In this document: positions 26,971 to 64,000 of the stretch, piece by piece
Layout: each line of letters starts with the position of its first letter
How positions within the stretch are numbered: the first letter of the stretch is position 1
Assembly: GCA_041641305.1 (NCBI GenBank)
Contig: JBEPYN010000002.1
Coordinates: forward strand, 320,001 to 384,000
Source: Nitrososphaerota archaeon
Lineage (GTDB): Archaea > Thermoproteota > Nitrososphaeria_A > Caldarchaeales > Caldarchaeaceae
Direction: 5' to 3'
DNA length: 64,000 bases
Made by a program: the position numbers and the translations under genes
Notes under the pieces: generated by a model
Databases searched by the model: none
What the model was told of the DNA's origin: nothing
What the model saw: the letters and a program-made list of their open reading frames with translations, nothing else

Positions 26971-27044
26971 CCTTCTAAGCTGGGGGTCGTGAGTCAGACC
27001 TTTACAGTAGGCGGCCGGTAGGTTTCAAGTCCCACCCGGGCCCA
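26971..27044 (+). tRNA. tRNA-Arg(TCT) 3' half with ~30-nt intron-like insert in the T-arm; no 5' half nearby
   Basis: C-CTTCTAA-GCTGG-GGGTC-GTG ... GGTTTCAAGTCCCACCCGGGCCCA; the 5' strand of the anticodon stem is missing. Confidence 0.6.
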
Positions 27045-27073
27045 ATAGCCTACAACATCATATTGGTCGTTGT

Positions 27074-27853
27074 TTATTCTATTCTTGGTGCTTGGTATAT
27101 TGTTAATAAGATATCCTTTATCTTAGCTCTAATAGCCATAGGAGCTGGCTTATTACTACCATGTATATAAAAGCATAGACTAACCCCCATACAACCAAGC
27201 CTATCAAGACCTTTAACACTCTCATAAATATACCCGAAGGAAAAACACTGCCTATCCAAATAACCCCATCCAGGAGCCTTAACAACCTTCTCCATATTAT
27301 CGTCCCAAACCTTTAAAACCCCATCATGATAACTAAACCTGACATAGTCATAGTTGTTTGTGAAGATAGCTAATATGGATAGAAGCTCTTTTGTGGGGAT
27401 TTTGACCTCTGCGCATCTATCATGCTCAATATCCCATACAAGCTCCTCAACCTTCAAACCAGCATCATTCTCCCTATAAACAACCATATCACCATACCTA
27501 ATCACCCCAATCTGAGAAAAATCATAGACAAGAGGTGTGTCTGATTTGATGCTTCTAAGGGCTTTAAGAGCGTTCTCAAGGTTTAAAAGACCTAACGGAG
27601 GCTCAACAACAGGGTTCTCAAAAACCCCGTCAACGGTTAAACGGACACAGGTAACATGGGTAGGGCTTAAAACGGCGCTGTTTAAAACACCATTCCTCAC
27701 ATAAACCCCGAAATTATCGAAATAATGCGAGCGTAGCATCTTGAAAAACGCCTTAAGCCTTGAGGCTGGCATAGCTATACGCAACGGCTTAACCTCAACC
27801 CTCTCAACAGCATCCATCTCAACCCTCTCAAGAAACATATCCAAGCTTGTCAT
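27074..27853 (-). CDS. Divergent PCNA sliding clamp
   Basis: LSPTHVTCVRL (cf. DPSHV.LV.L), ~260 aa, C-terminal APRIE. Confidence 0.8.
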   Translation of the reverse strand: MTSLDMFLERVEMDAVERVEVKPLRIAMPASRLKAFFKMLRSHYFDNFGVYVRNGVLNSAVLSPTHVTCVRLTVDGVFENPVVEPPLGLLNLENALKALRSIKSDTPLVYDFSQIGVIRYGDMVVYRENDAGLKVEELVWDIEHDRCAEVKIPTKELLSILAIFTNNYDYVRFSYHDGVLKVWDDNMEKVVKAPGWGYLDRQCFSFGYIYESVKGLDRLGCMGVSLCFYIHGSNKPAPMAIRAKIKDILLTIYQAPRIE

Positions 27854-27876
27854 GGCTAAACCATCTTATCCAAAGT

Positions 27877-27894
27877 ATTTAACCGACTTAGGCC
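27877..27894 (-). promoter_or_regulatory. Element promoter GGCCT-N7-TTAAAT (PCNA gene)
   Basis: GGCCTaagtcggTTAAAT, 24 nt before ATG 27853. Confidence 0.75.
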
Positions 27895-27955
27895 AACAAG
27901 GGAATGTAACTATCTCCTCATAAGAACGCTGGTCTTCATACAACCTTCAAAAACC

Positions 27956-28594
27956 TTATCCCTGACCATTATTGTTCGGCTCTTCCTCATTTTCGTCAAA
28001 ATCGAAATCATACCGCTTAACATCCCCTCTTCTCTTTCTCGGCTTCTCTCTTAGTTTAAGACCACACATAGGGCAGTAAGGCTTCTCAAGCTTGAGCTGA
28101 AAAGCGGTAAGACAATGGGAGCAAAAACCATGACCTTTTCTATAGAAAGGCTGTCTCGACGCTGGATAGAAAAAGGCAAGCTTCTCGTCAGGCTTATAAG
28201 ACATACACAGCATATTATCCTCAACCCATAAATCAACCCTGATACGGTTGCCGTCCCAGCCGTTGAACAGGCCAGCATATTGGCTCGGTATCCTAAGCCT
28301 CAGCCCCGCTGTCGTGTCGTAACGGCCCGTAAACCTCTCCCCCCTCACAACCGCTATATAATCGCCCTTCGGAGGTAACTCAAATTCCTTAAAAACACGG
28401 ATAGGTAGCTTAAGCCTCAAAGTGCCAGACGCTTCATGTATAATCCTCGCCTCCATGCCTTCAAGAACCTTCTTAGGCGAAAAATCATCAATACGGCTAT
28501 TCATAGCATTCTCTTTTCCATGAAACGATAAAGGCTTTGCCTGAACATCTTCATCAGGTTTGGGTGGCTGAAAATCCTCTTCACGACCGTTCAT
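27956..28594 (-). CDS. AbrB-like protein with C-terminal family Zn finger
   Basis: LRLKLP/LRLRIP repeats; GHGFCSHC..CPMCGLKLREKPR. Confidence 0.65.
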   Translation of the reverse strand: MNGREEDFQPPKPDEDVQAKPLSFHGKENAMNSRIDDFSPKKVLEGMEARIIHEASGTLRLKLPIRVFKEFELPPKGDYIAVVRGERFTGRYDTTAGLRLRIPSQYAGLFNGWDGNRIRVDLWVEDNMLCMSYKPDEKLAFFYPASRQPFYRKGHGFCSHCLTAFQLKLEKPYCPMCGLKLREKPRKRRGDVKRYDFDFDENEEEPNNNGQG

Positions 28595-28792
28595 AGCTTA
28601 TTCTACTTGATGAAATTATAAAAGCGTTAAACAATCTCTGAAAACCAGAAATTCTGGCTCTCCACGGCTTAGAAAGCCAAAATACCTCAAAAAACCATGT
28701 CATAAACACTTTGGCCACAAAAATGCAAAATTTCGCCACTACCTGGCGTAAATCGTCGAAATAAAAACAAGGAGTTTAGCGAAAGCCATACT

Positions 28793-29263
28793 TCATACCT
28801 CACTCTCCGTCGTCTTCGCCTTCTCCTCGATAAGGTCTGCGATACGTTTCAGGAAATCAGCATCGCTCTCATCCAAGGTCATCCAGCTCTCCATCGGAGG
28901 AATGAAACGTAGCTCGTAATAATGTAGAAAAGGCATCATACCACCCTTGAAAAACACCCTCAGCTTGAACCCTCTCTTCTCTCCAGCCAACCTAAGCCAC
29001 CTCGTTATCCTGCGGTCTGGACAAACAAATTTCCGAGCCAGCCCTTGTCTCTCAACCTCGTCCAGCCTCTCCATGGCCGCGTCTCTCAAATCAGGGCTTC
29101 TGAGGAAAACCAGCAGACAACGGCACCCATCCGTGGCAAACATAAACCATAGATGCGGATGGTTATCAGTCGTGGCGGTAACAACCTCCAAAAACGGCGT
29201 ATCATTAGAAATTCCTGTTCTCACATCCCTTATAGCGTTCACATCACAGAGCAAGGAAACCAC
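28793..29263 (-). CDS. Hypothetical protein
   Basis: ORF coupled to 29239-29481. Confidence 0.5.
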   Translation of the reverse strand: MVSLLCDVNAIRDVRTGISNDTPFLEVVTATTDNHPHLWFMFATDGCRCLLVFLRSPDLRDAAMERLDEVERQGLARKFVCPDRRITRWLRLAGEKRGFKLRVFFKGGMMPFLHYYELRFIPPMESWMTLDESDADFLKRIADLIEEKAKTTESEV

Positions 29264-29481
29264 CTCTCTACCTCACTATTATAGGGCAGAAAATCCTCAA
29301 CATCCTTACCCGCCATCATAGCCCAAAGCCTGAAATACAACACGAAATTCAGAAGCCTTCCATAGCTGGGCCGCTCCCTCAACCCGTCCAACTTCAGCAA
29401 CAATTGAACAGGCATGTCGTTGCTAAATCTTCTCCACACTTCTTCACACCAATCCTGAACCGAACGCTGATGAACGCTCAT
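29239..29481 (-). CDS. Hypothetical protein
   Basis: Element promoter at 29505-29522, 24 nt upstream. Confidence 0.6.
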   Translation of the reverse strand: MSVHQRSVQDWCEEVWRRFSNDMPVQLLLKLDGLRERPSYGRLLNFVLYFRLWAMMAGKDVEDFLPYNSEVERWFPCSVM

Positions 29482-29599
29482 GTCTGAAACATCTCAACCT
29501 AAGAATAAAAACAGAAAAGGCCTGCCCAGTATTTGTCGGCCTTCACCAATTCAGACATGGCCTTAAATAATTAAATCCATCCAAGGCATAGCGTATTGT

Positions 29600-30043
29600 A
29601 TGTTGTCATACGTGGCCGCAATGCTATACGCACACGTCCTCAGAGACCATGCACCGCCCTCTCCCCCAATAACGATATCAATTGATGCTTTCAAGGCTTA
29701 TGTCAAGGAACTTGGCGTAATTGACATGATAGGTGAGGAGGAGGTTGAGCCGTATCTGAGCATGCTCGCTAAACTCGGATTTATTGAAAAATATGAAAAC
29801 AACAAGATAACGATACATGAGGAGGGCTGGGAACTACTCAACTCTCATTGGTTTGAACTTAGAAAGTCATGGCTGAGGAAAATAAGTATCGTTAATGAAT
29901 TGTTGTCTAAGATTGAGGACAGCCTTACAGTAAGTCGGGGCTCACCGAATAGGGCGGGAGAAAACACCGTAAAATTAGTTCTGACCGCGCCACCCACAGC
30001 ATCTATGACGATTGTATTCATGTTCGACACCTCAGGCCGCTAA
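29600..30043 (+). CDS. Winged-helix protein
   Basis: YLSMLAKLGFIEK..KITIHEEGW; promoter at 29559-29576. Confidence 0.65.
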   Translation: MLSYVAAMLYAHVLRDHAPPSPPITISIDAFKAYVKELGVIDMIGEEEVEPYLSMLAKLGFIEKYENNKITIHEEGWELLNSHWFELRKSWLRKISIVNELLSKIEDSLTVSRGSPNRAGENTVKLVLTAPPTASMTIVFMFDTSGR

Positions 30044-30452
30044 ACTCCTTGAATACATGAGAAGAGCGTTTTCAAAAAACCGTCTCTGCTCATTTGTAAG
30101 AGCTATCTCTGTGATGATGTGGTTATCAAGGTTATCATTTGAGAAAACGGCGACGTAAAAAACACCAGAAGACGCCACCGCCATCAACCACTCCTCTACA
30201 TCTTCGAAAACCCCTAAATATTCTTCGCTGGAATGAAGCAGAACCCTGACGAGGAGCCTTCCATCAAACATGAAATTGCAACAATGAGGGGTTTCAACCT
30301 TTTCCACAAAAACTACTATACACGGGCGCCCACGTATTACTGCGAGTTTAATATCACTCTTGGGGAACGACGACAAGCTCCACCACCTCTCCATCCCTCA
30401 TAAATTTCTTCAAAGCTTCAGGCTTTGAAGAAACACGGTAAACTGTTTTCAT
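30032..30452 (-). CDS. Hypothetical protein with apparent frameshift in the G4 run at ~30362
   Basis: Promoter 30476-30493 points to ATG 30452 (MKTVYRVSS..VVVP); removing one base joins it to KSDIKLAVIRG. Confidence 0.55.
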
Positions 30453-30493
30453 ACCTGCTTCTAAACCCGCTAAACATTTAAACAGCTCAGGCC

Positions 30494-30853
30494 TCATTCT
30501 TCAACCAAACCCGTCCGAGGACGCATTTGGAGTGCTTCGCTGATATGCATGTATGTATAACTGTTGAAGCTGAGGCTCTGCCCCCGATTTATCATATGTG
30601 ATTTATTCAATTCAGAGGCTTTCTTCTCCGCTTCGTCCTGGGTGTAAGCGGTGTCCACAACCGTAAACTCACGCATGTAACCGTTGTCAAACTCCTGAAG
30701 GACGAGGTAAAAGCTATGGCTGTCGCATACGACAGCACCCATATCGCTTAAATAAATTGCTTGTTTACCGACAAGCGGTTTAGAACATAGAAGGCATGAG
30801 CCATAGCGGGCTGTGATGCTGTAAACTCTCGGAGGCTTCAAATAATACCTCAT
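30494..30853 (-). CDS. Hypothetical Zn-finger protein
   Basis: CLLC...CDSH. Confidence 0.55.
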   Translation of the reverse strand: MRYYLKPPRVYSITARYGSCLLCSKPLVGKQAIYLSDMGAVVCDSHSFYLVLQEFDNGYMREFTVVDTAYTQDEAEKKASELNKSHMINRGQSLSFNSYTYMHISEALQMRPRTGLVEE

Positions 30854-31077
30854 TCAGCCTCATCCTCGTCTACACAGTGTTCCACTACTTTTGAGCCTGC
30901 TCTGCTCATCTGCTCGTAAAGCCAATCCTCAACAGCCTCGTATTGCGCCCGATACTTCTCAAATACATGGTCAGCCCTCGGGTCTGATACACAGTCTCCA
31001 CATACATAGAAAATCAGCTCAATCTCGAAATCAAATTTCTCTTTCTTACCGCAAACCTCACATTTATACACACTCAT
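30850..31077 (-). CDS. Small Zn-finger protein
   Basis: CEVC...CGDC; promoter at 31101-31118. Confidence 0.65.
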   Translation of the reverse strand: MSVYKCEVCGKKEKFDFEIELIFYVCGDCVSDPRADHVFEKYRAQYEAVEDWLYEQMSRAGSKVVEHCVDEDEAE

Positions 31078-31102
31078 GCCAACAAATTGTCAAGCCATGT
31101 AT

Positions 31103-31330
31103 TTAATCGGATGAGGCCCCCGCATGTTTTCTATCCATAAAATCACGAATTAAAAGCTCTCTATGACCGCATTTAGGACATTCATAGTCAATAGGTTCAC
31201 AATCTACATCCTCAACATAGCTTGGCTGAATATTCGGCGATGGAAAGACCTTGAAAATTTTGACCACGGAGAGATGCTCTAACAAATATGTAAGCTTCTC
31301 TCCACAGCCTGGACACTTAAACCTCGCCAC
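31103..31330 (-). CDS. Small Zn-ribbon protein
   Basis: CPGC...CPKC; SD-like GGAGGTG upstream. Confidence 0.6.
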   Translation of the reverse strand: MARFKCPGCGEKLTYLLEHLSVVKIFKVFPSPNIQPSYVEDVDCEPIDYECPKCGHRELLIRDFMDRKHAGASSD

Positions 31331-32300
31331 CTACTCCCCCCTCTTTCTGTCTCAAATAAGACAGGAGCGCGTCATCTACAAACACGTCATAGAACCCTTT
31401 AATCTCGCTACTGCGCTTAACCACATGAGGCACCCCGCGGAAATCAAGGAAATGCGACAACTCCTTGGCATGAAGCCGCGACAACGTATATTTCCTTCCC
31501 TCGCCTCTCTCCAGAGCTTCCATGCGTTTTTTAAGGATGCTGAAAAGCCTAAGCCATAGAAGCGCCATTCCTTTGACATATCTGTAATCGTCTCCATAGT
31601 ATAGCCCTTGTTTGTAGCATTCCTCGATAACCTTCAACTTTCTCTTCATGTGTCTGATTGCTTTATGAACCGTCCCGTGGTCAATAAGGGCGACAACATA
31701 TGCCTGCATCAACGGCATCCTCGGCCACGGCGCAGTAGAGTGGACATACGGTATCTTCCCCGCTAAAGCCTTCTCGATAAGGGGCACAACCTCTTTTCTA
31801 TGCCTCTCTGCACCTATTCCACGGTAATCATGTAAAATGTCTCCTATAATCGCCTTGACATCAACGTCTCGTATAACCAACTTCTCGTATATGTCGGACT
31901 CAAGGACGACCTCGTAGTGATAAGCATCTATTATCTTCGCGATAACCCCCCAACGATTATGGTGCTGAGAAAGCTCAGGGTCAAAACATCCATTAATTTT
32001 GATTACTGTTCCGACACGGTATCCGAGCCTTCCCCTTTCCTTAGCAACCGTGTAGGCTTCGGGGCCTCCGAGTATCTCTTGTAAAAAGCCTCCTTCGGGG
32101 AGCTTTCCTGTAAGCTGTGAGGGGCTAAGCTTCAGACCATCTTTGGTCTTGACTTTGCCAGCGAGAACGTCTTCGAGAAAGGCCTCGATAGGCTTCTCTT
32201 TATCAGAGTAGAACTGCTGGACGTATTCGAGCCGCTCAACGGGTAGCCGAACATTTAGGCTTGCAGATGGTTTAGCTGGGACAAAAACCTCCGCATCCAT
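31317..32300 (-). CDS. Hypothetical protein (possible N-terminal RHH)
   Basis: 327-aa ORF. Confidence 0.6.
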   Translation of the reverse strand: MDAEVFVPAKPSASLNVRLPVERLEYVQQFYSDKEKPIEAFLEDVLAGKVKTKDGLKLSPSQLTGKLPEGGFLQEILGGPEAYTVAKERGRLGYRVGTVIKINGCFDPELSQHHNRWGVIAKIIDAYHYEVVLESDIYEKLVIRDVDVKAIIGDILHDYRGIGAERHRKEVVPLIEKALAGKIPYVHSTAPWPRMPLMQAYVVALIDHGTVHKAIRHMKRKLKVIEECYKQGLYYGDDYRYVKGMALLWLRLFSILKKRMEALERGEGRKYTLSRLHAKELSHFLDFRGVPHVVKRSSEIKGFYDVFVDDALLSYLRQKEGGVGGEV

Positions 32301-32339
32301 AAGTTATCCAACCCTAGCCAAACTACCTTCCTGTTTTAT

Positions 32340-32573
32340 TCAATCAGCAACGACAATCTCCAGCACTTCTCCAGTGAGAAGCTTCTTCAAACTCTCCAAC
32401 TCCCTTTGTGCCTTTGGAGAAAGCGACTGAAAAACCTCTTCGTCGAGGTAAACGGGTATTGTGCTACTGCTTGTCTCTAACTCGAGAAGCTCCTGAGCAA
32501 CGTCATCACTCACCTCGCATACTTTCTTCCATTCAATCAAATAAACCGCCCTCGTCTTTACCATATCGTTCAC
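32340..32573 (-). CDS. Hypothetical protein
   Basis: Promoter at 32610-32627. Confidence 0.55.
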   Translation of the reverse strand: MNDMVKTRAVYLIEWKKVCEVSDDVAQELLELETSSSTIPVYLDEEVFQSLSPKAQRELESLKKLLTGEVLEIVVAD

Positions 32574-32629
32574 CTACCCTTTCATCACAGGTATAGACCT
32601 CTCTCATACATTTAATCCCATGAGGCCAG

Positions 32630-33670
32630 TTATGGAGCAAGGAGGATAACCCTCTTATGTGTAATGATGGGTTTAGCGAGTGGGGGTTTCGGCAACTCTT
32701 TAACAGGCTTCGGTTTGATGTAGAAATCTTCGGTTCTTATCAACTCCTTCGGAGCATCGGCAGGAGGCTCATGAAAGCGGCTGTTAATGCGCCTATGAAG
32801 GCGCACATCTATACCTCTATCCCTCAAAATTTTGCAGGCAATCAGGGTTGATAGGTTAGCGGACATGCCGAGCTGAGCTTGGTAATAGTAATAACCCTTA
32901 ATTATGTAAACTTTCTCGGCGACGTCGCTGATTTTCTCAACAAGAGCGGATGGAAGGCTTTGGATATCAACTTCATAGAAGCCTGGGGCAATCTCCCGTA
33001 GTTTTCTCACCTCTTCGATAGACCGCCTATATTCCATCAATAAGCGTTCTCTCTGTTCTATCCTTCTCTTCTCTTTATCTGTTAGCGTTCTGTATATATG
33101 AGCCGTGGTGAAGAGGTCTTTCGGAATCCAAATCAAATCAATAAGGTCATAATTCCAACGCCTTGTGAAAACTACTTCAAAGTCCTCGTCTGGTATCTCG
33201 GGATAGGAAACGTCCATGTATCTACTCAGCCTCCTCATATACCGTTTACATTCGTTAAACATTTTCAAGAACTCCTGTTTGCTGACCGTAATAGGCTCGT
33301 TGGGTTTGGTCGGGAAAAAGGGCGGTAAAGCTTCGCCCAATTCAAGATATATGGTTTTGTTATGCATGGATGTTCCTGTGTTTAGAAAAACACGTCCATC
33401 ATACCCTACAAGCTCCGACTGAATTCGGTAAGTTTTGTTTAAACCAAATATTTCAAGCCTGCCATGATAAGGCAGGTAGGCACGCTCTAATTCCCCTCCA
33501 AATAAATAGGGCTTATAGCCAAGGGATAGAGCTTTTTTCAAATAACGCAGTCTCCTTAAATGAGGAGCGATGGAATGAACGAAATCTGGATATATTCTCG
33601 CCTTTTCGAGCCGCTCTCTAAATCTTCTCTCGAAGACCTGCAAAACCTCCTTAGGGTTAACCTCTTCCAT
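32630..33670 (-). CDS. Hypothetical protein
   Basis: 346-aa ORF; promoter 33694-33711, 24 nt upstream. Confidence 0.65.
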   Translation of the reverse strand: MEEVNPKEVLQVFERRFRERLEKARIYPDFVHSIAPHLRRLRYLKKALSLGYKPYLFGGELERAYLPYHGRLEIFGLNKTYRIQSELVGYDGRVFLNTGTSMHNKTIYLELGEALPPFFPTKPNEPITVSKQEFLKMFNECKRYMRRLSRYMDVSYPEIPDEDFEVVFTRRWNYDLIDLIWIPKDLFTTAHIYRTLTDKEKRRIEQRERLLMEYRRSIEEVRKLREIAPGFYEVDIQSLPSALVEKISDVAEKVYIIKGYYYYQAQLGMSANLSTLIACKILRDRGIDVRLHRRINSRFHEPPADAPKELIRTEDFYIKPKPVKELPKPPLAKPIITHKRVILLAP

Positions 33671-33752
33671 ACCCTAAAGAAAATAGTTGATTTTTATTAC
33701 CGCTAAAGGCCATATTCATAAAAAAAGGTGAAGGGTTTTAGGGGCTGGGTGT

Positions 33753-33974
33753 TTAGATATCCACCCATGCCCCCACAGTCTTGTCTCTGACATGGACGAT
33801 GGGGTCTCCAGCCGCTGGCTCGACTATTGCTATATCCTCGGGCTTCTCGGCAATCTTCAGAACCTTTTCCCTGATTGGTTTAGGCATGTTTCTGACCTTC
33901 TCTTTGACGCTTTTTGCTCCGCCCTTCTTTCGTCCCGACTTTCTCGCCTTCGTCTTTGTCTTTTTCTTAGTCAT
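33753..33974 (-). CDS. Small basic protein with Lys-rich N-tail; paralog of 39798-39968
   Basis: MTKKKTKTKARKSGRKK...DPIVHVRDKTVGAWVDI. Confidence 0.65.
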   Translation of the reverse strand: MTKKKTKTKARKSGRKKGGAKSVKEKVRNMPKPIREKVLKIAEKPEDIAIVEPAAGDPIVHVRDKTVGAWVDI

Positions 33975-34024
33975 GGCAGGCGATAATATCTCTCTCAAGT
34001 AAATAACTCTCAGAGGCCCGCTGT

Positions 34025-34040
34025 TGTCAACAAGTTGACA
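34025..34040. promoter_or_regulatory. Palindromic operator TGTCAACAAGTTGACA
   Basis: One of four near-identical intergenic palindromes. Confidence 0.65.
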
Positions 34041-34052
34041 GCATTTAGGGCC

Positions 34053-35270
34053 TTAGTAGAGCTTTATGAAACCCTTTAGAATGCATTTTATCTTGTGTAT
34101 GAGCTTGGTCTCTACAGTGCCGTTTGCGTATATCACATAGAGCCTTGCCTGCTTGCCTTCACGCGGCCTCATAATCCTTCCTTTTCTCTGCACAAGTTGT
34201 CTAACGCTCTGTCCGCTTGCTATGATAGCGGCTATAGCCACCTCTGGCACGTCCACACCCTCGTCCAAGGCTCTAACAGCTAACAAGACGTTGAAGCTCT
34301 TCCCCCACTCGGAGAATATTCTGCCCCTCTCGCTCATGGATTTATCGCTGTGATACGTTTCTGCCGCGACCCCTTTCTCGGAAAGATACGTCTTCAGCTC
34401 CTCAATGCTGTGTATCGACTCGCTGAACACTATTATCTTCTCATGGGGATGTTGGGTTACGACATTGTATAGGGCATCTTTCTTGGAGGCTATCCTGCTT
34501 AGGAAAATCCGCCTCTCATTGATGAGAACCTTGAGCCTCCGCTCCAGCTCCTCGGCATCTCTTTGAAACGCTTTGGAGTTCTTTAAAAATGAGAGCATGC
34601 TTCTAACTTTCCATATTTCGGCTTGTATCTCCATATACCTTTTCCTCTCTTCCCTGTTCATTTCGGCTGGGATGGGGACGAGCGTTATTGGTGCCACGTA
34701 TCCGTTCTCAACAGCATTCTTCAAGTCCAACGTGTAAACAACCGGCAACTTTGATAGGATGTTGTAGTGTTTACCATCTTCTCTTTTAAGCGTGGCTGTC
34801 AGGCCGAGAACCTTTTTCCCATCAATCTTCGGCAGAATAGTGGAGAACACATCGGCTCCAACATGGTGTATCTCATCAAGAATTATCAGCTCGAAATGGT
34901 TCAGTATCTCGGGATGGCGGCACACGCTGTTATAAATAGCGACCGTGTATCTGCTCAGCCTTTTCTCACCACCATAGAACCTCGTAAACAAAACATCAGC
35001 CTCTCTACCCTTCTTAACCCACTCCACCATCACCCTTTCGTATGGTGTGATTACAAGCGTCGGTAACCCAATCCTCTTAATGGCGTGAAGCCCAATAATC
35101 GTCTTCCCCGTCCCCGTCGGCGCTATAACTACTCCCCTACATCCCCGACCAGCCCATTTCTCGAAAGCCTCGACCTGATATGGTCGGAGAACCCTTCCAC
35201 CGACTGCTTCGTTTTGTGCCTGACTCGGAGAATTTTCCTGCAGAAGAAACTGCTCTAATCGGGACAGCAT
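34053..35270 (-). CDS. XPB/Rad25-like superfamily 2 helicase
   Basis: LRPYQ, PTGTGKT, DEIH, LTAT, DEGVDVP, QRKGRIMR. Confidence 0.92.
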   Translation of the reverse strand: MLSRLEQFLLQENSPSQAQNEAVGGRVLRPYQVEAFEKWAGRGCRGVVIAPTGTGKTIIGLHAIKRIGLPTLVITPYERVMVEWVKKGREADVLFTRFYGGEKRLSRYTVAIYNSVCRHPEILNHFELIILDEIHHVGADVFSTILPKIDGKKVLGLTATLKREDGKHYNILSKLPVVYTLDLKNAVENGYVAPITLVPIPAEMNREERKRYMEIQAEIWKVRSMLSFLKNSKAFQRDAEELERRLKVLINERRIFLSRIASKKDALYNVVTQHPHEKIIVFSESIHSIEELKTYLSEKGVAAETYHSDKSMSERGRIFSEWGKSFNVLLAVRALDEGVDVPEVAIAAIIASGQSVRQLVQRKGRIMRPREGKQARLYVIYANGTVETKLIHKIKCILKGFIKLY

Positions 35271-35324
35271 CGTGGCTAAACTTGCAAAAATAGCAATAAA
35301 ACCGGCTAAGGCCAGAGGCCCTGC

Positions 35325-35672
35325 TCACATAACAGCCCTGTAAAAAACGGTTACCCCGAAGGGATAGTCATCATCCTCATAACCTACATATACATATCCA
35401 TCCCATCCTGTTTCGATGATTTCTCCAGCTTTCTCGAAAATAGCCTCATAAACCAGCTCATCCTCATCCAAGCCTGTTGGAAGCTTTTCAGCGACGCATT
35501 CAATAGACCAGCCCTCAGCCCATACCTCATACAAATCCCCATCCTCTACCTGAACCAAAACAGGCTGGAAAAGAGGCAAAGCAGAGCTGGCTATGGCGTT
35601 CTCCAGCTCCTCTTCAGACAAACTCTGTAGCCTGATTATCGTTTTAGTTTCTTCGAATTCACGGACAACCAT
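35325..35672 (-). CDS. Acidic hypothetical protein
   Basis: Operon-like overlap with neighbour. Confidence 0.55.
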   Translation of the reverse strand: MVVREFEETKTIIRLQSLSEEELENAIASSALPLFQPVLVQVEDGDLYEVWAEGWSIECVAEKLPTGLDEDELVYEAIFEKAGEIIETGWDGYVYVGYEDDDYPFGVTVFYRAVM

Positions 35673-35844
35673 GTTCTATGAAATCCTCAGCATCCGGGTC
35701 ATAAGTGCCTACATACATAAACTTGTGTTCGAATTCCTTGCCACAGCTACACTTCACTTTGACGACGCCGATTTTCTCCCACCAGTCAACTTGGAATTCA
35801 CCGGTTAGAGGCAGCCCCTCTCCGCAGTATGGGCATTCGACCAT
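35659..35844 (-). CDS. Small Zn-ribbon protein
   Basis: CPYC...CSC. Confidence 0.6.
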   Translation of the reverse strand: MVECPYCGEGLPLTGEFQVDWWEKIGVVKVKCSCGKEFEHKFMYVGTYDPDAEDFIEHGCP

Positions 35845-35850
35845 GAAATA

Positions 35851-36066
35851 TCACCCCAACCACAGCCTGAGCTCATCTGTTGTCGGCAGCATCTCCCCAA
35901 GCTGTATGCCTGCGCTTCTGGCCCATATATGTAGGTCAAGGAGAAACTGAACAAGCATAGTTGTATTAGCTGTCAAGTTCTCGAGCTTCAGTTGCAAAAA
36001 TTTTGGCGCATTTAGCTGGGTAAGACGATTTGTCAGGTCAGTTTTCCATGTTTCAAAACTTCTCAT
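35851..36066 (-). CDS. Hypothetical protein
   Basis: Likely start MRSFETW at 36066. Confidence 0.45.
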   Translation of the reverse strand: MRSFETWKTDLTNRLTQLNAPKFLQLKLENLTANTTMLVQFLLDLHIWARSAGIQLGEMLPTTDELRLWLG

Positions 36067-36520: not shown

Positions 36521-36570
36521 AGTTTCTGAAATAGCGAACTCATGTTTAAAATCTGGAGGCTTTGACGAAG

Positions 36571-36687: not shown

Positions 36688-36691
36688 AAAC

Positions 36692-39968: not shown

Positions 39969-39993
39969 GGCTATACCTTCATGCATCATAGAT

Positions 39994-53926: not shown

Positions 53927-53927
53927 T

Positions 53928-55142: not shown

Positions 55143-55289
55143 GTGGCGGGCAAGAAGGCTGCTAAGAAGATGGGGTCGAAGCCGGCGAAGAAGAAGGTGA
55201 AGGCTAAGAGAAAGGCTAAACCTAAACCCGCTCCGCCAGCTCCCTCCGAGAAGCGGGCGGAGTCTGCTGCTGAAGCGCCGGCGATGTAG
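55143..55289 (+). CDS. 48-aa Lys/Ala/Pro-rich basic protein (histone H1 tail-like; not in ORF track)
   Basis: MAGKKAAKKMGSKPAKKKVKAKRKAKPKPAPPAPSEKRAESAAEAPAM (GTG start). Confidence 0.6.
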   Translation: MAGKKAAKKMGSKPAKKKVKAKRKAKPKPAPPAPSEKRAESAAEAPAM

Positions 55290-55836
55290 CCCCAACCCCA
55301 CCCTCATTATTTTTTACATGTATCCCGAGCTTCTCTCTCATTATCTTGGACTTTCGGCATACAGCTACTGTTGAGAAACCGGATGCTCTGGTCACCTCGG
55401 TCAAGGAGCAGCTTGGTGCGGCTGCAATATACAGGGCCGCGGTGGCGGCGATGTATGTGTGTTCTCCATATCTATGCAGGATGCTCGCTGCCTCGTCTAC
55501 GTAGGTCTCTAGACCAAGCTTGGTGGCTAGCATCCTTAGGAAGAGTTGTGCTGACTGTCTCTGGTCAGCCACGGTGCTGTAGCCAAGTGCCTCCGACACC
55601 TTTCTCAGCGTCTTCAGGAAGCCCCTCTTCCTCTGGAGTATTTCCTTTAGCTGGATAGGGTACTGGTTATGTTTGCAGACAATGTAGAGAACCGCGGCCA
55701 CTAGGGTCTCCCCATTCCTTCCCTGCGACAAACCCATTCTCCTGAGCCTTTCCAGCATCTGTCTAGCCAAGTCTACGAGGTGGCTGGGTAACGAGAGGGT
55801 CTCGGCGTAGCTTGTCAGCAGCTCGTCGAGCCTCAT
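55222..55836 (-). CDS. TFB/TFIIB-like protein, cyclin repeats only
   Basis: L.LP......A, GR..ETLVAAVLYIVCK..YPI.LKEI; second repeat IAATAALYIA..LTEV..ASG.S; no Zn ribbon. Confidence 0.82.
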   Translation of the reverse strand: MRLDELLTSYAETLSLPSHLVDLARQMLERLRRMGLSQGRNGETLVAAVLYIVCKHNQYPIQLKEILQRKRGFLKTLRKVSEALGYSTVADQRQSAQLFLRMLATKLGLETYVDEAASILHRYGEHTYIAATAALYIAAAPSCSLTEVTRASGFSTVAVCRKSKIMREKLGIHVKNNEGGVGATSPALQQQTPPASRRELAERV

Positions 55837-56016: not shown

Positions 56017-56702
56017 ATGTGGGAAAACATTTTGACTGGGATGGTTAAACCATACGCTAAGCTTTACATTCCTGCTTGGATGGCTGTCTATGATAGGCTT
56101 AGACGTGCTAAGGGTAGGCCTTTTAAGACGACTTTGCTGTCGGAGGAGCTGGGGATACCTAGGACGTCGGTGAATCAGGCGCTTCTAGCGCTCCGTGTTA
56201 AAGGGCTCGCCCGCAAGACATCCAATGGCTATGTTTACGATGTCTTCCAAACCGAGCCTGTGAGCAACGGGGGAATTCCATGTTATTCATGTGGCTCTAA
56301 AAGCTATAGGACGGTCTCCGTCACCGTGGCAGGCTCTGAGAAGCTTCTCTGTCTTAATGTCTCTCCCATATCGTTGAACTAGCTCTGAGAATCGCAGGCC
56401 GGCTCAAGAACCTTGAAGGCGGAGACATCCAGAGGCATACAAAGCGGGAAAAGGCTGCGATATATGGCAGGTTTGTAGGGCGTCTCATCTCCTTGGTTGG
56501 GCGTCGGGGTAGGGTTTGCGCCACCTCCCTTGGTCTTCGTCATGGGCTGTCGAAGAGAGAGGTTAGGAGAGTATTGGATAAGATGGCTCCAAAAATGGGC
56601 TGGGTTATTGAGCGGAGGTCTGGCCATCTCTATGTGAGGCCCGGGGAATCTCTTAGGGAGCCGGAGCAGGTTATCGCATCGACTATAAATGGTCAGGGAT
56701 AG
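56017..56702 (+). CDS. HTH + Zn-finger + wHTH protein with apparent frameshift at ~56356
   Basis: Adding one A changes CLNV* to CLKCLSHIVELALR..., open through to 56702. Confidence 0.65.
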
Positions 56703-58177
56703 CTCCCCCATCTTGTTAAAAGGTCTTTGCCGACACTTGCCACATCCGCTTCTTTATCCACTACGCAGATAACAGGCCTCTGTATCTTGAGCGCGTGTCC
56801 CTTGTATATGCAGTATCCTCTGGGCAGTAGCCTTGCGGAGTAGGCTATATCGCTTCCCACTATGCTCCTAAGCCTCTCAAGGTCCACGTCCTCAACCCTG
56901 AAGGCGAATATGTTCTGGCCCATCTGTGTTGATATGAATTTGTCCACTTCCGAGAGTCTCTGCGTGGCTATGAAGAGTGGCATGCCGTTTCTGGGGCCTG
57001 TTGTCGCTATCAGCTTCATGACCGGTATCATCATGTCGTATGCTTCTCTGCTTGCCGCGCCTTCATGTGGTGATTGTGGGGCGAAGTTATGGACCTCGTC
57101 TATGAAGACGGCGACTCCGAATGTCGGGTCTGTTCTTGCCTTGGCGTAGCAGGCATCCAGCATCTCTCTGCTCTTGTTGATTATCTCGTCCCAGTTCGAG
57201 GCGTCTGAGAAATCTGCGTGAACCAACGCGTTGGACCTTACCGCTTCGACGATATCTAATCCATTCTCCTCCGGAGCGTGTTGGAAGATGTTTCTCCCCA
57301 AGTCTTCGAGGCGTTTCTTCACATCCTCTGATTCAACCATGGACAGTATGGTGTCGAGGCCTTGCTGAGACCATTCTATCGAGCTGACCCCCATCTCCTC
57401 CAGCTTTTTGGCTATGGCGTATAGCGTTCTCGCCTCTCTCGCGTTTCCCGAAAGACCTGCGAGGGCTCTGAAGCTGCTGTACCAGTTTACCGGGCTCATG
57501 TTTTTCTCCTTCCGCGCAAGTTTAGTGGATGCGGTTACCTTCATGTAGCCTCCATGTTCCTGCGCTGTTTTCTCTAAGACATCGCTTCTAAACTCTCCAT
57601 CCCAGTCTATCAAGAGTATGTGGGGGTTTCTAACGTTTTTCAGTATTTTCAGCATCATTGACATGAGGAGCGTGCTTTTCCCTGTCCCAACTCCTCCAAC
57701 GACCAGAGCACCCTGCCTAAACAGTGTCTTGAGGCTGAGGTTTAGCCTGACATCGGTTGGGTAAATTGTTCCCAGCGATATGCTGGGGCCCTCTGGGCTG
57801 ATGAATGAGGCTAAAGCCTCTGGGCTAGGTCTATAGACTGGTGTGAGAGGCGGTATCGGTGTGAGCAGGGACTTGACGATACCATTCTCCTCGTATCCGA
57901 CCTGCCAGCAGACAGCTTTTCCCACTATCTTTTCGGGGTCTTGCACAGCGTCTCCGTCTCTCAGCATCTTCTCATCGTAGCTGGAGCTAGGCCTCTTCAT
58001 GAAGGCTGCTTCGACCTGTATGAAGACGGGCTTGTCCTCGGTCGGATGCTTTATGCAGAGGTACTCTCCTCTATGTACCGATTTGTTAGCCAATAGTGTT
58101 ATCTCTGCTCTGTCTGAGCCGTAGCTCCCCTCCGTCGAGTGGACGTAGCCGACTATTTCTCTGAAGATGTTTACCAT
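56693..58177 (-). CDS. herA: HerA-family helicase/ATPase
   Basis: HAS-barrel-like N-terminus, GGVGTGKS, IDWDGE, IDEVHNFAP, ATQR. Confidence 0.9.
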   Translation of the reverse strand: MVNIFREIVGYVHSTEGSYGSDRAEITLLANKSVHRGEYLCIKHPTEDKPVFIQVEAAFMKRPSSSYDEKMLRDGDAVQDPEKIVGKAVCWQVGYEENGIVKSLLTPIPPLTPVYRPSPEALASFISPEGPSISLGTIYPTDVRLNLSLKTLFRQGALVVGGVGTGKSTLLMSMMLKILKNVRNPHILLIDWDGEFRSDVLEKTAQEHGGYMKVTASTKLARKEKNMSPVNWYSSFRALAGLSGNAREARTLYAIAKKLEEMGVSSIEWSQQGLDTILSMVESEDVKKRLEDLGRNIFQHAPEENGLDIVEAVRSNALVHADFSDASNWDEIINKSREMLDACYAKARTDPTFGVAVFIDEVHNFAPQSPHEGAASREAYDMMIPVMKLIATTGPRNGMPLFIATQRLSEVDKFISTQMGQNIFAFRVEDVDLERLRSIVGSDIAYSARLLPRGYCIYKGHALKIQRPVICVVDKEADVASVGKDLLTRWGSYP

Positions 58178-59112
58178 ATCTTCTCACCCCATCTCGGGAC
58201 AAGCGGGGCCCATAGCTTACGTGGAACATTCGACAAAACTCTATGGATGCATGACTTGTATAGGTCTGTGACCAGTCTTCTGCTTATCTTGACCTCTTCG
58301 TCGGCCTTCATGATTAGGGCGGGTGGTCCATGCACGGGGTCCGAACTGTATGTGATGTACTCCAGTATCTCTAGGGCTCGGCTATCATCGATGTATGGTG
58401 GTGTATCTATTCGGAAGACCCCGGCCTCCGGCTCGTTCAATAACTTGATGTAGGTGTATTTCGCATCTGTTTTCTCGGTCGGCGGTGTGGCGGGAGGCCA
58501 TGGACAGGCTTCATTCTTCTCGAGGGTGGCTGAGAGAAGCGACCTATCTGTCCCAAGCGTCGAGAGATACCTGCTCTGCGGCCTCTTCACAAACCCAGCC
58601 ACCATGACATCTCTCTCTTTACAGAGCTCTATCAGTGACTTGAGCTGGTAAACATATTCTCCGACATATTTTGGTCGGGGAATCAAAGGCCCATCCACGA
58701 TAAGCAAATCTGGTTTATTCTCCTCCACAACCTTTTGCGCCAGCATCAGCAGCATAGTCTCTCTTTCTATGTCAAGCCTGTCGCTAAACTCGCCATCATC
58801 TTCTCCATATTCTTGGATGAGGAGCTTAGGCTCCATTATTCTGCGCCTGTGTTCATCATCATGTATGACTGCAAGTGCTGCCGCGAAGCCCACGTTGACG
58901 TCTGCGAATGGGAGGATGCTGCTGCCCCCGTCCACGGCCGCAACCCTCCAGTTCTTGCGGGATGGGGAGATGATTATTCTACGCGGTGGAGTAAACATGC
59001 TGACGGCGCTGGCGAATTTTTCAGCCTCTGTATCCATGAAATGTGTAAGCCTGTCCTCAAGCCTCCTGATAAGCTGGCTGTAGGTTTTTACCTCTTCCTC
59101 TTCCTGAGCCAA
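58171..59112 (-). CDS. nurA: NurA-family nuclease
   Basis: AAVDGGS, E, IVDGPL, GFVKR, P..L..AD; adjacent to herA. Confidence 0.88.
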   Translation of the reverse strand: MAQEEEEVKTYSQLIRRLEDRLTHFMDTEAEKFASAVSMFTPPRRIIISPSRKNWRVAAVDGGSSILPFADVNVGFAAALAVIHDDEHRRRIMEPKLLIQEYGEDDGEFSDRLDIERETMLLMLAQKVVEENKPDLLIVDGPLIPRPKYVGEYVYQLKSLIELCKERDVMVAGFVKRPQSRYLSTLGTDRSLLSATLEKNEACPWPPATPPTEKTDAKYTYIKLLNEPEAGVFRIDTPPYIDDSRALEILEYITYSSDPVHGPPALIMKADEEVKISRRLVTDLYKSCIHRVLSNVPRKLWAPLVPRWGEKIW

Positions 59113-59191: not shown

Positions 59192-59398
59192 CTAAACCGC
59201 TTCAACCCCCTTTTCTATGGGTTCCGCATCATCCGGCTTAACAAGTATAACGTTCACGTCTTTCTTCTTTTTCTTTGGTTTGCTTCTCATGGTGACGCCG
59301 CATTCTGGACATCTATGGGCGTCGGTCTTCCGGTAAACCATGCATCTACTACAGTATCTGTAGCTGAACACAGCTCTTTTCCAGCCATTCCGTAACAC
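59192..59398 (-). CDS. Family Zn-finger protein
   Basis: YRYCSRC..RCPECGVTMRSKP. Confidence 0.7.
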   Translation of the reverse strand: MLRNGWKRAVFSYRYCSRCMVYRKTDAHRCPECGVTMRSKPKKKKKDVNVILVKPDDAEPIEKGVEAV

Positions 59399-60549: not shown

Positions 60550-60678
60550 TTAAAATATAATACCATAAAACGCCCTCCCCATCATTGTGCCGCACTCGGG
60601 GCACCTGTCGGACATCACCATCCTATACTCCATACATCTGCTGCAGTATCTGTAGCCGTCCGCATATCTCCGGGCCAT
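60550..60678 (-). CDS. Family Zn-finger protein, 3'-truncated (42 aa, not in ORF track)
   Basis: MARRYADGYRYCSRCMEYRMVMSDRCPECGTMMGR|AFYGIIF. Confidence 0.65.
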   Translation of the reverse strand: MARRYADGYRYCSRCMEYRMVMSDRCPECGTMMGRAFYGIIF

Positions 60679-60821: not shown

Positions 60822-61031
60822 TCATATTCTCGCCTTCAATAGCTTCGCGGCCTCTTCCGGGCTTAGCCCAAGCTTCTTAAAGCTGTTCTGGTAGCCGCAT
60901 CTCGGGCAGACCACGTATACCCACAGCCTTGCCCCTGCTCCGTTTACCGGTACTCCTCCGCTGTGTGGGTAGCTCTCCACGCGGCCGCCTTCGAGGCCGT
61001 CTCCACAGCTTACGCATCTAAGAGTTTTCAT
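60822..61031 (-). CDS. Small Zn-ribbon protein
   Basis: CVSC...CPRC; promoter at 61055-61072. Confidence 0.7.
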   Translation of the reverse strand: MKTLRCVSCGDGLEGGRVESYPHSGGVPVNGAGARLWVYVVCPRCGYQNSFKKLGLSPEEAAKLLKARI

Positions 61032-61054
61032 GCTCCTACTGTGTTCTGGGATGG

Positions 61055-61086
61055 ATTTATCCGGATTAGGCCTTATCCAGATATAT
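61055..61086. promoter_or_regulatory. Bidirectional element promoter sharing one AGGCCT core
   Basis: ATTTAT-ccggatt-AGGCCT-tatccag-ATATAT; starts at 61031 (-) and 61113 (+). Confidence 0.7.
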
Positions 61087-62484: not shown

Positions 62485-62504
62485 CCTGTCAACATGTTGA
62501 CAGG
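62485..62504. promoter_or_regulatory. Perfect 20-bp palindrome CCTGTCAACATGTTGACAGG (operator)
   Basis: Intergenic, between two TATA-like boxes. Confidence 0.7.
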
Positions 62505-62633
62505 TAAGCGGCCCATGAGATTATTTAAGGGGATAAAAATGCCTGCGCTGGACATAGGGTAGAAGGATTAGACGCAACTGATAGATAGGGCTTTATCCCG
62601 TTAAATCCATCGCAATTATCTGGTTGTTTTGGG

Positions 62634-62882
62634 ATGAGTGTGGAGGAGCTGGAGAGGGAGAGGGCTAGGGAGGAGTTCGTGGCGGATATGCTTCTGCCGC
62701 CGATTTTTATGCTTACAAGCATGCTTTCAGCCCTTGCGGCGGCGCTCCTCATACACCCCATTCTCCCGGCTTTGGGGCTTTATGTGGCCGCTATACCTAT
62801 AGGGGTAGCGGCTGCGGTTACCCTGGTGGTTAGATGGATGTGGAGGAGGAGGATTTCAGCCAGGTACGGGAGGTCTAGCTGA
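62634..62882 (+). CDS. Small 2-TM membrane protein
   Basis: Promoter variant at 62589-62606. Confidence 0.6.
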   Translation: MSVEELERERAREEFVADMLLPPIFMLTSMLSALAAALLIHPILPALGLYVAAIPIGVAAAVTLVVRWMWRRRISARYGRSS

Positions 62883-63087
62883 ACCTCTGCCTGCCGCTCA
62901 AGTAGATGTATGCTATGTGGAAGTATATGGTGATGGCGGCGGCTATTACCGCTGTGAACCCAAGCTTCAGAACGGACTCGACAGACTCCGAAAGCCACAT
63001 AACAGCCATGATGAAGATGGCTGCAGCTTCGCTAAGATACATTGCTACTAGGTACTCTTTCAGACCCATCGTGTCAAAATACAGCAT
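62875..63087 (-). CDS. Small 2-TM membrane protein
   Basis: Hydrophobic ORF. Confidence 0.5.
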   Translation of the reverse strand: MLYFDTMGLKEYLVAMYLSEAAAIFIMAVMWLSESVESVLKLGFTAVIAAAITIYFHIAYIYLSGRQRFS

Positions 63088-63116
63088 TGGAAGGTAATTA
63101 ATGATTCTTCTGGGAC

Positions 63117-63132
63117 TGTCAACATGTTGACG
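63117..63132. promoter_or_regulatory. Palindromic operator TGTCAACATGTTGACG
   Basis: Intergenic copy. Confidence 0.65.
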
Positions 63133-63150
63133 GTTTCGAGCAGCATAGTG

Positions 63151-63627
63151 TTAGCGCAAGTCTGCCCTGGCCTCTAGCAGCGGCGTCTTGAGGAGCTGTG
63201 GTAGCCGGAACGGGCTGAGGCAGGCTTCGCGTAGGTCCATTATCCTGCCGCCGCTCAGCCTCCTTATCGCGAGGCTATTCTCGTAGCTTTTTATCAAGGT
63301 AGGGGGGTTTTTGAGCCTTATCTCAACACCTTCCTCAAGTGGTGTGGGGATGAGCGTTATGTCTACCATGGTGTAGACACCGTCCCTCACCTGCCTCAGG
63401 CTCTCCAGACTTGGTACATTGATGTTTTTGAAGACTTTGTAGACGCTGTCCCTCTTCATGCTTATGTCGAAGTGGTACTGCGTGGCTGGGCAGTACATCC
63501 TCACCCTCGTCCCACCTCTCTGCACCTCCATGCTTATGGCGCCGAGCTTTTCCTTGACATGGTTCCAGAGTAGCTCGACGCGTCTGTCGCAGTTGATTTT
63601 CCAGAAGCTGAACTCCAGTTCACTCAT
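63151..63627 (-). CDS. Hypothetical protein
   Basis: 158-aa ORF, coupled to the upstream gene. Confidence 0.55.
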   Translation of the reverse strand: MSELEFSFWKINCDRRVELLWNHVKEKLGAISMEVQRGGTRVRMYCPATQYHFDISMKRDSVYKVFKNINVPSLESLRQVRDGVYTMVDITLIPTPLEEGVEIRLKNPPTLIKSYENSLAIRRLSGGRIMDLREACLSPFRLPQLLKTPLLEARADLR

Positions 63628-64000
63628 CCCCCGTCAACCATATCTTCACTTGCCTGTTTATTATCTTCTGAGGCCTTGGCGAGGCCGAGCGCCAGCAACA
63701 CCGCTCTGGCTTCCCTTCTGTCCTGTGATGTTGCAGGCGAGGTAACTGCTTTCAAAGCCTTCTCGAACAGGAACACCAGCCTTTCATCGGCAAGCCTGTC
63801 CATCAGAAGACGTCTAAGGGCGTGGTCGCCTTCTACAAAGGCGTCTGCTAGGCCGGGCAGCAGCGCCTCCGCGGGGGCCAGTAGCTCGAGGTATGGATGT
63901 TTCTCACGTAGCTTTTTCGCCACCTCTTCGACGCCGAAGTCTATCCACACCCTCCGATAGCCAGACGCCTTGAGCTCATCAAGTATCTTGGAATGTGTTA
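63624..64000 (-). CDS. Hypothetical protein (5' end beyond window)
   Basis: Frame open to the window edge. Confidence 0.5.
   Translation of the reverse strand, partial: THSKILDELKASGYRRVWIDFGVEEVAKKLREKHPYLELLAPAEALLPGLADAFVEGDHALRRLLMDRLADERLVFLFEKALKAVTSPATSQDRREARAVLLALGLAKASEDNKQASEDMVDGG

Follow-up and report, generated by a model that had tools for sequence, protein, structure and literature searches.

The window analysed here, a stretch of 64,000 nt from a hot-spring archaeon (Nitrososphaerota), corresponds to C2:320001-384000 of the source genome G000 (1.66 Mb, 4 contigs, guanine-cytosine (GC) content 52%) and contains the left part of a large island inserted next to a polB gene. G000 was compared with G009, the nearest complete relative compared, a single contig of 1,680,938 bp from the same genus (Caldiarchaeum/Caldarchaeum). 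The two genomes are collinear up to C2:346800 (window 26800), where G009 jumps straight to the counterpart of C2:463468. Because of this jump, C2:346801-463467 is an insertion of 116,667 bp in G000, equal to 7% of the genome, and window 26801-64000 is its left 37 kb, the first third. Island positions past the window end are given in the same numbering as window-equivalent coordinates above 64000.

Window 17001-37000 can be aligned to all of the 11 genus genomes only as far as about 26800, just beyond the end of polB (24598-26745), and the search of window 27000-37000 against these 11 genomes gave no counterpart, short repeats excepted. At the same position the GC content drops from 0.55 to 0.43-0.46. 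An earlier note, made from the letters of the window, had described a switch in gene content from 26971 onwards; the switch is real but starts at 26801. The empty site beside polB which it suggested looking for in relatives was found in exact form in G009 and in at least nine contigs of a sister species.

The insertion point is a short spacer/promoter region between the divergent polB and luciferase-like genes, in which the unoccupied target reads ...CACCAACCTTTATAACATC.... The left junction of the island is ...CACCAACCTTTAT|CATAGATTCC..., the right junction ...GAGTATG|TTTATAACATC... and the empty site in G009 ...CACCAACCTTTAT|AACATC.... Comparison of the junctions with the empty site thus gives a duplication of the 5 bp TTTAT (Table 1). 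The site appears to coincide with the TATA-like TTTATAA of the polB and luciferase-like genes. A circular form, if it exists, is predicted to join the right end to the left as ...GTGAGTATG-TTTAT-CATAGATTCC....

Spread among assemblies and the right-tip module

By exact-protein look-ups, polB and the luciferase-like gene were found as immediate neighbours, around an intact site CACCAACCTTTATAACAT, in at least nine sister-species contigs, whose flanks share 83-89% identity with G000. Other assemblies of the sister species, e.g. GCA_038888745.1, bear both island junctions. In these occupied assemblies the last 3 kb of the island on the right show 100% identity to G000, as against 75-92% in the adjoining host gene, and the left-terminal 300 bp is ~100% identical next to a polB of 85-94%. 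Since the ends are ~100% identical while the flanks reach only 75-94%, the comparison points to a recent cross-species transfer of the island. Within the otherwise 100% identical stretch of the two species' islands, one patch in the PriL gene (window-equivalent 139750-140496) is 78-93% identical.

In GCA_038888745.1 (JAWAHY010000002.1, ~42.8-70.1 kb) the distance from polB to the luciferase-like gene is only ~27 kb, and therefore the element exists in a short (~27 kb) and a long (117 kb) form. The short variant contains a DDE_Tnp_1 insertion sequence (IS) right behind the clamp gene described below.

A 10.8-kb part of the left arm (27073-37858) was found with 99% identity in six contigs from other samples, half of which come from assemblies with an empty polB site. 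In four contigs aligned to G000 (L040-L043) the homology ends at 27073 and is followed by an open reading frame (ORF) of 182 aa and restriction-modification genes. A related module is present in G009, there in a 63-kb variable region elsewhere on the chromosome, with a SWIM helicase, an Hjc-like gene, DUF996, a transcription factor B (TFB) and HerA-NurA at 74-83% nucleotide identity to the island; genes related to XPD and PriL of the right arm lie in the same region. Pieces of the island also occur in G002, G004, G007 and 'Archaeon HR02'.

Both termini carry fragments of host-type genes. Positions 26802-26900 comprise a piece of the tpiA promoter with the first codons, pointing outward to polB (the name is a reading of the translated N-terminus), with 88% identity to G009 C1:1391357-1391440 and 76% to G000 C1:307949-308032. 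At the right terminus (G000 C2:462985-463460) an outward-reading 5′ fragment of gatD was noted, 92% identical to G009 and 87% to the copy of G000. Both fragments are closer to G009 than to the own genes of G000 and look like souvenirs of an earlier stay in a G009-like lineage. The mosaic segment 26801-27073 is missing from L040-L043, which share the following 10.8 kb, and the homology to these contigs breaks exactly at the terminus of a dispersed repeat of ~150 bp. At least ten copies of this repeat exist in G009 (loci L065-L070) and a single one in G000; the 26-nt terminus of the G009 repeat was not found elsewhere in G000.

A tRNA fragment at the left border, from which the earlier note had started, was rejected. 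ARAGORN over the window and Rfam at E<=10 over 26600-27200 detect no tRNA, the paralogous sequence is the 5′ end of tpiA, and Rfam is blank at both paralogous loci too. A tRNA-like 3′ remnant behind the tpiA fragment is visible by eye only.

A tyrosine recombinase could not be found anywhere in G000 (99% complete) by matches to PF00589 at E<=0.1; the same family was found in 14 of 14 control genomes. G000 may lack a XerA-type recombinase or possess a very divergent one. At the right tip of the island lies a gene for a protein of 282 aa (window-equivalent 141971-142819), which has four paralogues in the genome and no Pfam match. Just after it, a hairpin contains the strings ATGTTATAAA (142840) and CCAACCTTTA (142878, both window-equivalent). 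They represent both strands of the target CCAACCTTTATAACAT and overlap at the duplicated core. A host-gene fragment sits between the hairpin RNA and the right junction. We infer from these strings that a putative IS110/TasR-like gene together with its RNA places the element at its site. Instead of the integrase expected on extension of the contig, a hairpin RNA which spells the site was thus found behind this gene. The junction repeat measures only 5 bp, and an integrase with att repeats, by which integrative-conjugative elements (ICEs) are recognised, was not found.

Genes and signals of the left arm

A simple longest-ORF procedure predicts ~59 ORFs with a minimum length of 50 aa and a start within 26801-64000; the minus strand carries 47 of these, and 28 fall short of 130 aa. 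The positions of all features are collected in Table 1.

The first gene encodes a protein of 259 aa without any match in Pfam, in a PDB sequence search (phmmer) or in PADLOC; its profile gave weak co-linear matches to PCNA chains (E 0.4). A single-sequence AlphaFold2 (AF2) model was uninformative (pLDDT 32). An alignment of seven sequences was needed, made up of the island protein and six distant homologues from a library of 1.8 billion proteins, with which the AF2 model reached a pLDDT of 82.8 and a pTM of 0.81. As every one of the 50 top-ranking PDB structures in Foldseek is a PCNA, matched along the entire length (E ~1e-13 to 3e-14, TM score 0.69-0.73), the model suggests a very divergent PCNA-fold clamp. 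The PCNA proposed earlier is hence borne out as a predicted fold and not as a member of the sequence families PCNA_N/PCNA_C. Homologues were found only in Caldarchaeum metagenome-assembled genomes.

Most of the other genes named in the earlier note were recovered by family scans. The XPB-like gene encodes an SF2 helicase of 405 aa, whose best-matching models describe Dnd/PbeA restriction proteins in their helicase part (PADLOC PbeA 198 bits); the NCBIfam scores, 154 bits for dnd_restrict_1 and 131 bits for XPB, remain below the cut-offs. The SplB-like radical SAM protein and the phospholipase D (PLD) family nuclease were likewise confirmed, the latter as a NucT-like match. For MYG1 a family match exists, limited to the N-terminal 66 residues. 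The DprA-like protein consists of the Rossmann/SLOG domain without extra domains (224 aa); it scores 153 bits with Pfam DNA_processg_A (cut-off 29.6) and 127 bits with TIGR00732, below the cut-off of 191. No other DprA was found elsewhere in G000 or in the four relatives searched. NrdJ is a clear assignment (TIGR02504, 733 bits, above cut-off), and the host encodes a further copy (C1:581729-584116) with 56% identity to it. The 345-aa ORF 40631-41668 has neither a family nor a PDB match.

The SWIM-Hef gene was also recovered. Its NCBIfam Hef match of 541 bits covers profile positions 4-509 of 781, the nuclease part being absent, and the gene is kept in the islands of G009, G002, G004, G007 and Archaeon HR02. 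The Hjc claimed for this region exists as a PF01870 match of 32.4 bits, above cut-off, on the plus strand; the minus-strand ORF 49356-49703 was discarded as a candidate, as it has no PDB match. The TFB was found again as a core of two cyclin repeats, covered by its NCBIfam match over profile positions 131-311 of 312 only, and no zinc ribbon is encoded upstream of it. NurA (79.6 bits, cut-off 21) and the HerA-like ATPase (DUF87, 30.8 bits, cut-off 23.2) form an adjacent pair of genes overlapping by 7 nt, as had been read from the letters, with 76-83% protein identity to the G009 module. As the HerA equivalog models score far below their cut-offs, the island HerA is a divergent family member. 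Separate host genes exist for PCNA (C2:643878), Hjc (C1:138503-138778), NurA (C1:743020-743973, with orthologues in relatives) and PriL (C2:334969).

The proposed DnaG N-domain could not be retained. The ORFs between NrdJ and the helicase encode zinc-ribbon mini-proteins with four cysteines and without family match. Their family comprises at least six copies with 60-70 aa, the pattern (Y/F)C.RC..Y.KT....CP.C and a basic tail; the sole copy outside the left arm is G000 C2:178838-178948. In the same low-GC stretch, two direct repeats, each ending in a palindrome, are a candidate for an origin or a transfer site. Paralogous small ORFs form two more pairs. The products of 33753-33998 and 39798-39989 have the common C-terminal motif DP..V....VG.W.D, and those of 29239-29481 and 35851-36132 both have a leucine-rich C-terminal half. 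The tRNA-Ala(GGC) of the island, overlooked by ARAGORN, is a duplicate of the host tRNA C1:272559-272633, which ARAGORN does find.

A promoter-like motif, GGCCTYATCC-N2-3-TTAAAT, occurs in four exact copies in the window compared to none in 100 shuffles, and a search across all 1.66 Mb of the genome gave seven loose matches, five of them in the left arm. In five of six motif copies TTAAAT is located ~23-29 nt ahead of an ATG; behind the copy 46994-47011 no ORF was seen to start at such a distance. Such a spacing is that of the TATA box of leaderless archaeal mRNAs, and the GGCC element stands at the position of the B recognition element. The genes behind the motif are those of the zinc-ribbon proteins 30850-31077, 45535-45744 and 60822-61031, of the radical SAM protein and a small gene heading the MYG1-PLD run. 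These positions suggest an island-specific promoter-like class, and the ribbon-less TFB may read such GGCC-TATA promoters.

Table 1. Positions of the island features in the window and, where indicated, beyond it.
Feature	Position	Strand	Basis or remark
TTTAT duplication, left copy	26796-26800		junctions compared with empty site in G009 and sister species
Left-terminal mosaic segment	26801-27073		~100% identity to occupied genomes of another species
Dispersed-repeat terminus	27074-27118	+	sharp end of ~150-bp repeat; last 45 nt of clamp ORF
PCNA-fold sliding-clamp protein, 259 aa, very divergent (predicted)	27074-27853	-	structure model only
Zinc-ribbon copy	~28016-28144
Promoter-like motif, exact	31101-31118	-	~26 nt ahead of an ATG
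SF2 helicase, XPB/Rad25-ResIII kind, 405 aa	34053-35270	-	Pfam
Radical SAM protein, PA0069/Rv2578c (SplB-like) kind	37120-37974	-	family scans
Promoter-like motif, exact	38000-38017	-
tRNA-Ala(GGC), 38-nt insert in T arm	38097-38202	-	Rfam 31.7 bits, just above threshold; anticodon loop UUGGCUU
PLD-family nuclease, NucT/DrmC-like, N-terminal membrane anchor	38263-38970	-	family scans, PADLOC
MYG1-like protein	38974-39771	-	N-terminal match
Promoter-like motif, exact	39992-40009	-
DprA-like protein	39994-40668	-	Pfam
NrdJ with ATP cone, second class II ribonucleotide reductase	42528-44783	-	TIGR02504
Low-GC stretch with zinc-ribbon genes	44786-46386
Zinc-ribbon gene	44786-44980	-
Promoter-like motif, variant	45493-45511	+
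Zinc-ribbon gene	45535-45744	+
Two 100-nt direct repeats, 120-bp spacing	45738-45957		palindrome TTGACCATATATGGTCAA (18 bp) at the end of each
Zinc-ribbon gene	46021-46386	+
Promoter-like motif, exact	46994-47011	-
SWIM zinc finger and Hef/FANCM-type helicase, no XPF nuclease part	46996-49338	-	Pfam
Hjc-like Holliday junction resolvase fragment, 95 aa	49395-49682	+	PF01870
933-aa membrane protein and M48 peptidase	51125-54953	+	cargo block missing from homologous G009 module
TFB/TFIIB core without zinc ribbon and B-reader	55222-55836	-	Pfam TFIIB
HerA-like ATPase	56693-58177	-	DUF87
NurA	58171-59112	-	family scans
Zinc-ribbon copy	59192-59398
Zinc-ribbon copy	60580-60666
Promoter-like motif, variant	61051-61079	-
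1110-aa surface-protein gene, 3′ end, opening the pilus locus	63624-64000	-	locus continues to 97640 (window-equivalent)
Type IV pilus locus (window-equivalent)	63624-97640		T2SSE ATPase, T2SSF platform, ~8 pilin-type N-termini, large surface proteins, glycosyltransferases
TTTAT duplication, right copy	G000 C2:463468-463472		beyond the window

The island beyond the window

Behind the type IV pilus locus follow a patch of GC 0.36 with a type IIG-like N6-methylase gene, then genes of an M50 peptidase, an MCM-like AAA+ protein, RadA/KaiC-like proteins, ParB and Hel308, and then a nine-gene cluster with two membrane-anchored HerA/FtsK-superfamily ATPases and multi-pass proteins of 1328, 748 and 284 aa. 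XPD and PriL are located in the right arm. In the pilus operon, a gene of a tubulin/FtsZ-family GTPase (66931-67947, window-equivalent) was observed between two giant surface proteins; a relative of it adjoins the PLD gene in G004.

The ATPases were assigned by Pfam scores just above the cut-offs. The 771-aa protein matches TrwB_AAD_bind with 28.7 bits (cut-off 20.5) as well as FtsK and has four N-terminal transmembrane (TM) helices, and the 936-aa protein matches AAA_10 with 32.8 bits (cut-off 27.5). Eight TM helices were counted in the 1328-aa, five in the 284-aa and two in a 167-aa protein. The nine-gene cluster recurs in the same order in other archaeal contigs. Among the genomes searched, it was found in only two of 12 of the genus, G000 included, and in none of eight others of the order.

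The earlier statement that no capsid, integrase or type IV secretion gene is recognisable holds inside the window, as judged by family scans. Extension of the contig yielded the pilus genes, a putative conjugation-type ATPase pair and ParB, and a capsid was not recognised there either. Pfam scans of the large ORFs revealed no capsid, portal, tail or clear terminase, and with 137 island ORFs scanned against PHROG no capsid, portal or tail family is among the 25 families listed of 67 matched; this negative result covers the large ORFs and the 25 listed families, many small ORFs lying outside the family scans. Two island proteins match a PHROG named terminase large subunit. The matches are ambiguous and probably stem from the HerA/FtsK ATPases (771-936 aa, with membrane anchors). 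Three IMG/VR scans, with HerA, a 346-aa ORF and the 936-aa ATPase, gave no relatives.

Nature of the island and comparison with known systems

The large integrated element postulated earlier is strongly supported. Of the two kinds considered then, a provirus or an ICE-like element, the latter is favoured because pilus genes, a putative conjugation-type membrane ATPase pair and ParB are present and neither capsid genes nor IMG/VR relatives were found. We conclude that the island is probably an integrated mobile element of the archaeal integrative-conjugative or conjugative-plasmid kind.

In such an element the putative IS110/TasR-like gene with its RNA would provide placement at the polB site, and the pilus locus, the two HerA/FtsK-type ATPases and their multi-pass membrane partners would move DNA between cells. 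The left arm would then act as a DNA-processing and establishment module. NurA-HerA could take the place of a relaxase and produce single-stranded or resected DNA; to our knowledge, no relaxase of archaeal conjugation is known. DprA, the RadA-like proteins, the Hef-type helicase and Hjc may handle recombination intermediates, the PCNA-like clamp together with PriL may tether host polymerases, and NrdJ may supply deoxynucleoside triphosphates. The membrane-anchored NucT-like nuclease would act at the envelope, and the ribbon-less TFB with its private GGCC-TATA promoters could provide the arm with its own transcription programme. For the recombination-dependent replication considered in the earlier note, the only pointer is that no recognisable initiator occurs in the island.

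Taken to its full extent, this scheme describes a self-transmissible element which is addressed by a guide RNA, replaces a relaxase by NurA-HerA, uses DprA, RadA-like proteins and clamp for establishment and has its private promoters read by the TFB. We put this full version forward tentatively and consider it unlikely as a whole. If true, a complete portable kit for DNA exchange would be crossing species borders in hot-spring Caldarchaeales.

Several observations weigh against a conjugative element. Neither a circular form nor excision or transfer was observed, the data being assemblies only. The nearest solved chains of both ATPases are HerA and DptH, without a sequence match to VirB4/VirD4. 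For VirB2/VirB6-type proteins Pfam and PDB searches gave no sequence match, only the TM counts being available, and a VirB2/TedC-type pilin was not found by sequence. Orc1/Cdc6, PriS or another replication initiator was not found in the island. The GC content forms a mosaic from 0.36 to 0.60, and much of the 117 kb may be accreted cargo, given the IS-bearing ~27-kb variant. PADLOC also shows a resemblance of the SF2 helicase, the PLD nuclease and HerA to defence proteins. Finally, the ATPase cluster lies among housekeeping genes in one distant genome, where it may be a host DNA-exchange system rather than part of an ICE.

Several of these observations suit a non-autonomous composite island, in which an RNA-guided IS110/TasR-like element accretes or mobilises cargo serving the host, namely defence genes, a Ced/Ted-like DNA importer, pili and spare repair genes, without a transfer or replication cycle of its own. 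In addition to the mosaic GC, the missing initiator and the chromosomal-looking ATPase cluster, the 27-kb variant with its IS occupies the very same site, tpiA and gatD fragments mark both termini, and the defence-like matches extend to PbeA, DrmC, HerA/mad8 and the type IIG-like methylase. The NucT-like membrane nuclease and DprA moreover recall DNA uptake, not export. However, the arm recurs at 99% identity in assemblies that hold it in differing contexts and the ends are ~100% identical across species, so that large blocks move as units. The private promoter motif ties the arm together, and ParB, TFB, the ATPase pair and pili are the set described for archaeal ICEs (PMC6563490). We regard the composite island as a possible explanation which is clearly less probable than the integrative-conjugative element.

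A provirus of an undescribed large archaeal virus, with structural genes among the unannotated ORFs and recombination-dependent replication, would account for the own clamp, ribonucleotide reductase, helicases and recombination genes and for the many small orphan and zinc-ribbon ORFs, all typical of large viruses; the two terminase PHROG matches and the lack of an initiator gene fit as well. Yet these matches are probably the HerA/FtsK ATPases, the capsid, portal and tail scans and the three IMG/VR scans described above were negative within their scope, and the pilus locus with ParB points to a plasmid-like lifestyle. A provirus is therefore improbable.

An ordinary conserved piece of host chromosome which merely looks foreign has practically no probability left: NurA-HerA, DprA and the Hef-type helicase are without close paralogue elsewhere in G000 (tblastn), but exact empty sites in relatives already refute it, a separate host NurA exists, the occurrence across the genus is patchy, island and flanks diverge discordantly, the region is non-syntenic with most genes either duplicated in the host or found in the island only, and conserved host synteny is excluded by the population and relative-genome data.

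Archaeal integrated elements of the conjugative type are a known kind. Thaumarchaeal ICEs contain pairs of VirB4/VirD4-like ATPases, TadC, FlaI, pilins, TFIIB and ParB and no relaxases (PMC6563490, PMC5797428). The elements described for Ca. C. subterraneum are limited to a tailed provirus and a cryptic element (PMC6563490), and in the literature searched no integrative-conjugative element in Caldarchaeales was found. Like the ICEs of Thaumarchaeota/Nitrososphaeria (NCAV2-E1/E2, NitEve-E6 and others; Abby 2018, PMC5797428; Krupovic 2019, PMC6563490), the island is large and integrated at a site that is empty in relatives; it shares with them an ATPase pair of the HerA/FtsK superfamily with Pfam AAA_10 and TrwB matches, TadC-/FlaI-type pilus genes, pilins, a TFIIB homologue, ParB, diverse DNA-metabolism genes, restriction-modification cargo and the lack of a relaxase. 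In contrast to them, it measures 117 kb, about twice their median of 64 kb, and has the putative IS110/TasR-like gene with a site-matching RNA where they have a tyrosine integrase and a tRNA att site. Its TFB is not adjacent to ParB, and a PCNA-fold clamp, NurA-HerA, DprA, NrdJ, a Hef-type helicase, XPD and PriL set it further apart.

With the Ced and Ted systems of Sulfolobales/Thermoproteales (van Wolferen 2016; Beltran 2023, PMC9905601) the island has in common a membrane ATPase, here putatively, of the VirB4/HerA kind, multi-pass channel-like and small two-helix proteins, the linkage to a HerA-like gene, cell-contact pili and a TFB paralogue, there in the regulon. A further common point is the role proposed for NurA-HerA as source of single-stranded DNA in archaeal conjugation-type transfer (PMC9905601). 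Ced and Ted are, however, domesticated chromosomal importers, whereas the genes described here ride on a patchily distributed mobile island, and its proteins have no detectable sequence similarity to the solved Ced/Ted pilins.

A third similarity concerns the IS110/IS1111 recombinases with bridge or seekRNA and TIGR-Tas, where a small gene is likewise followed by a structured RNA with two target-strand strings; as in IS110/IS1111 elements, a short core is duplicated at the junctions. Unlike there, the unit between the split target halves comprises 117 kb (27 kb in the other species) instead of 1.5 kb, and host-gene fragments lie between RNA and junction. The island is thus distinct in size, lineage, absence of an integrase, RNA-spelled site and breadth of the toolkit including a clamp recognised by fold only. 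It unites pili and putative conjugation-type ATPases with NurA-HerA and DprA and has both a clamp and a transcription factor of its own, and its placement is apparently specified by RNA and not driven by an integrase, with nearly identical copies in two species. With defined genes and sites at hand, NurA-HerA as the archaeal substitute of a relaxase, TFB paralogues as element-specific specificity factors similar to sigma factors and the RNA-guided insertion of very large DNA become testable.

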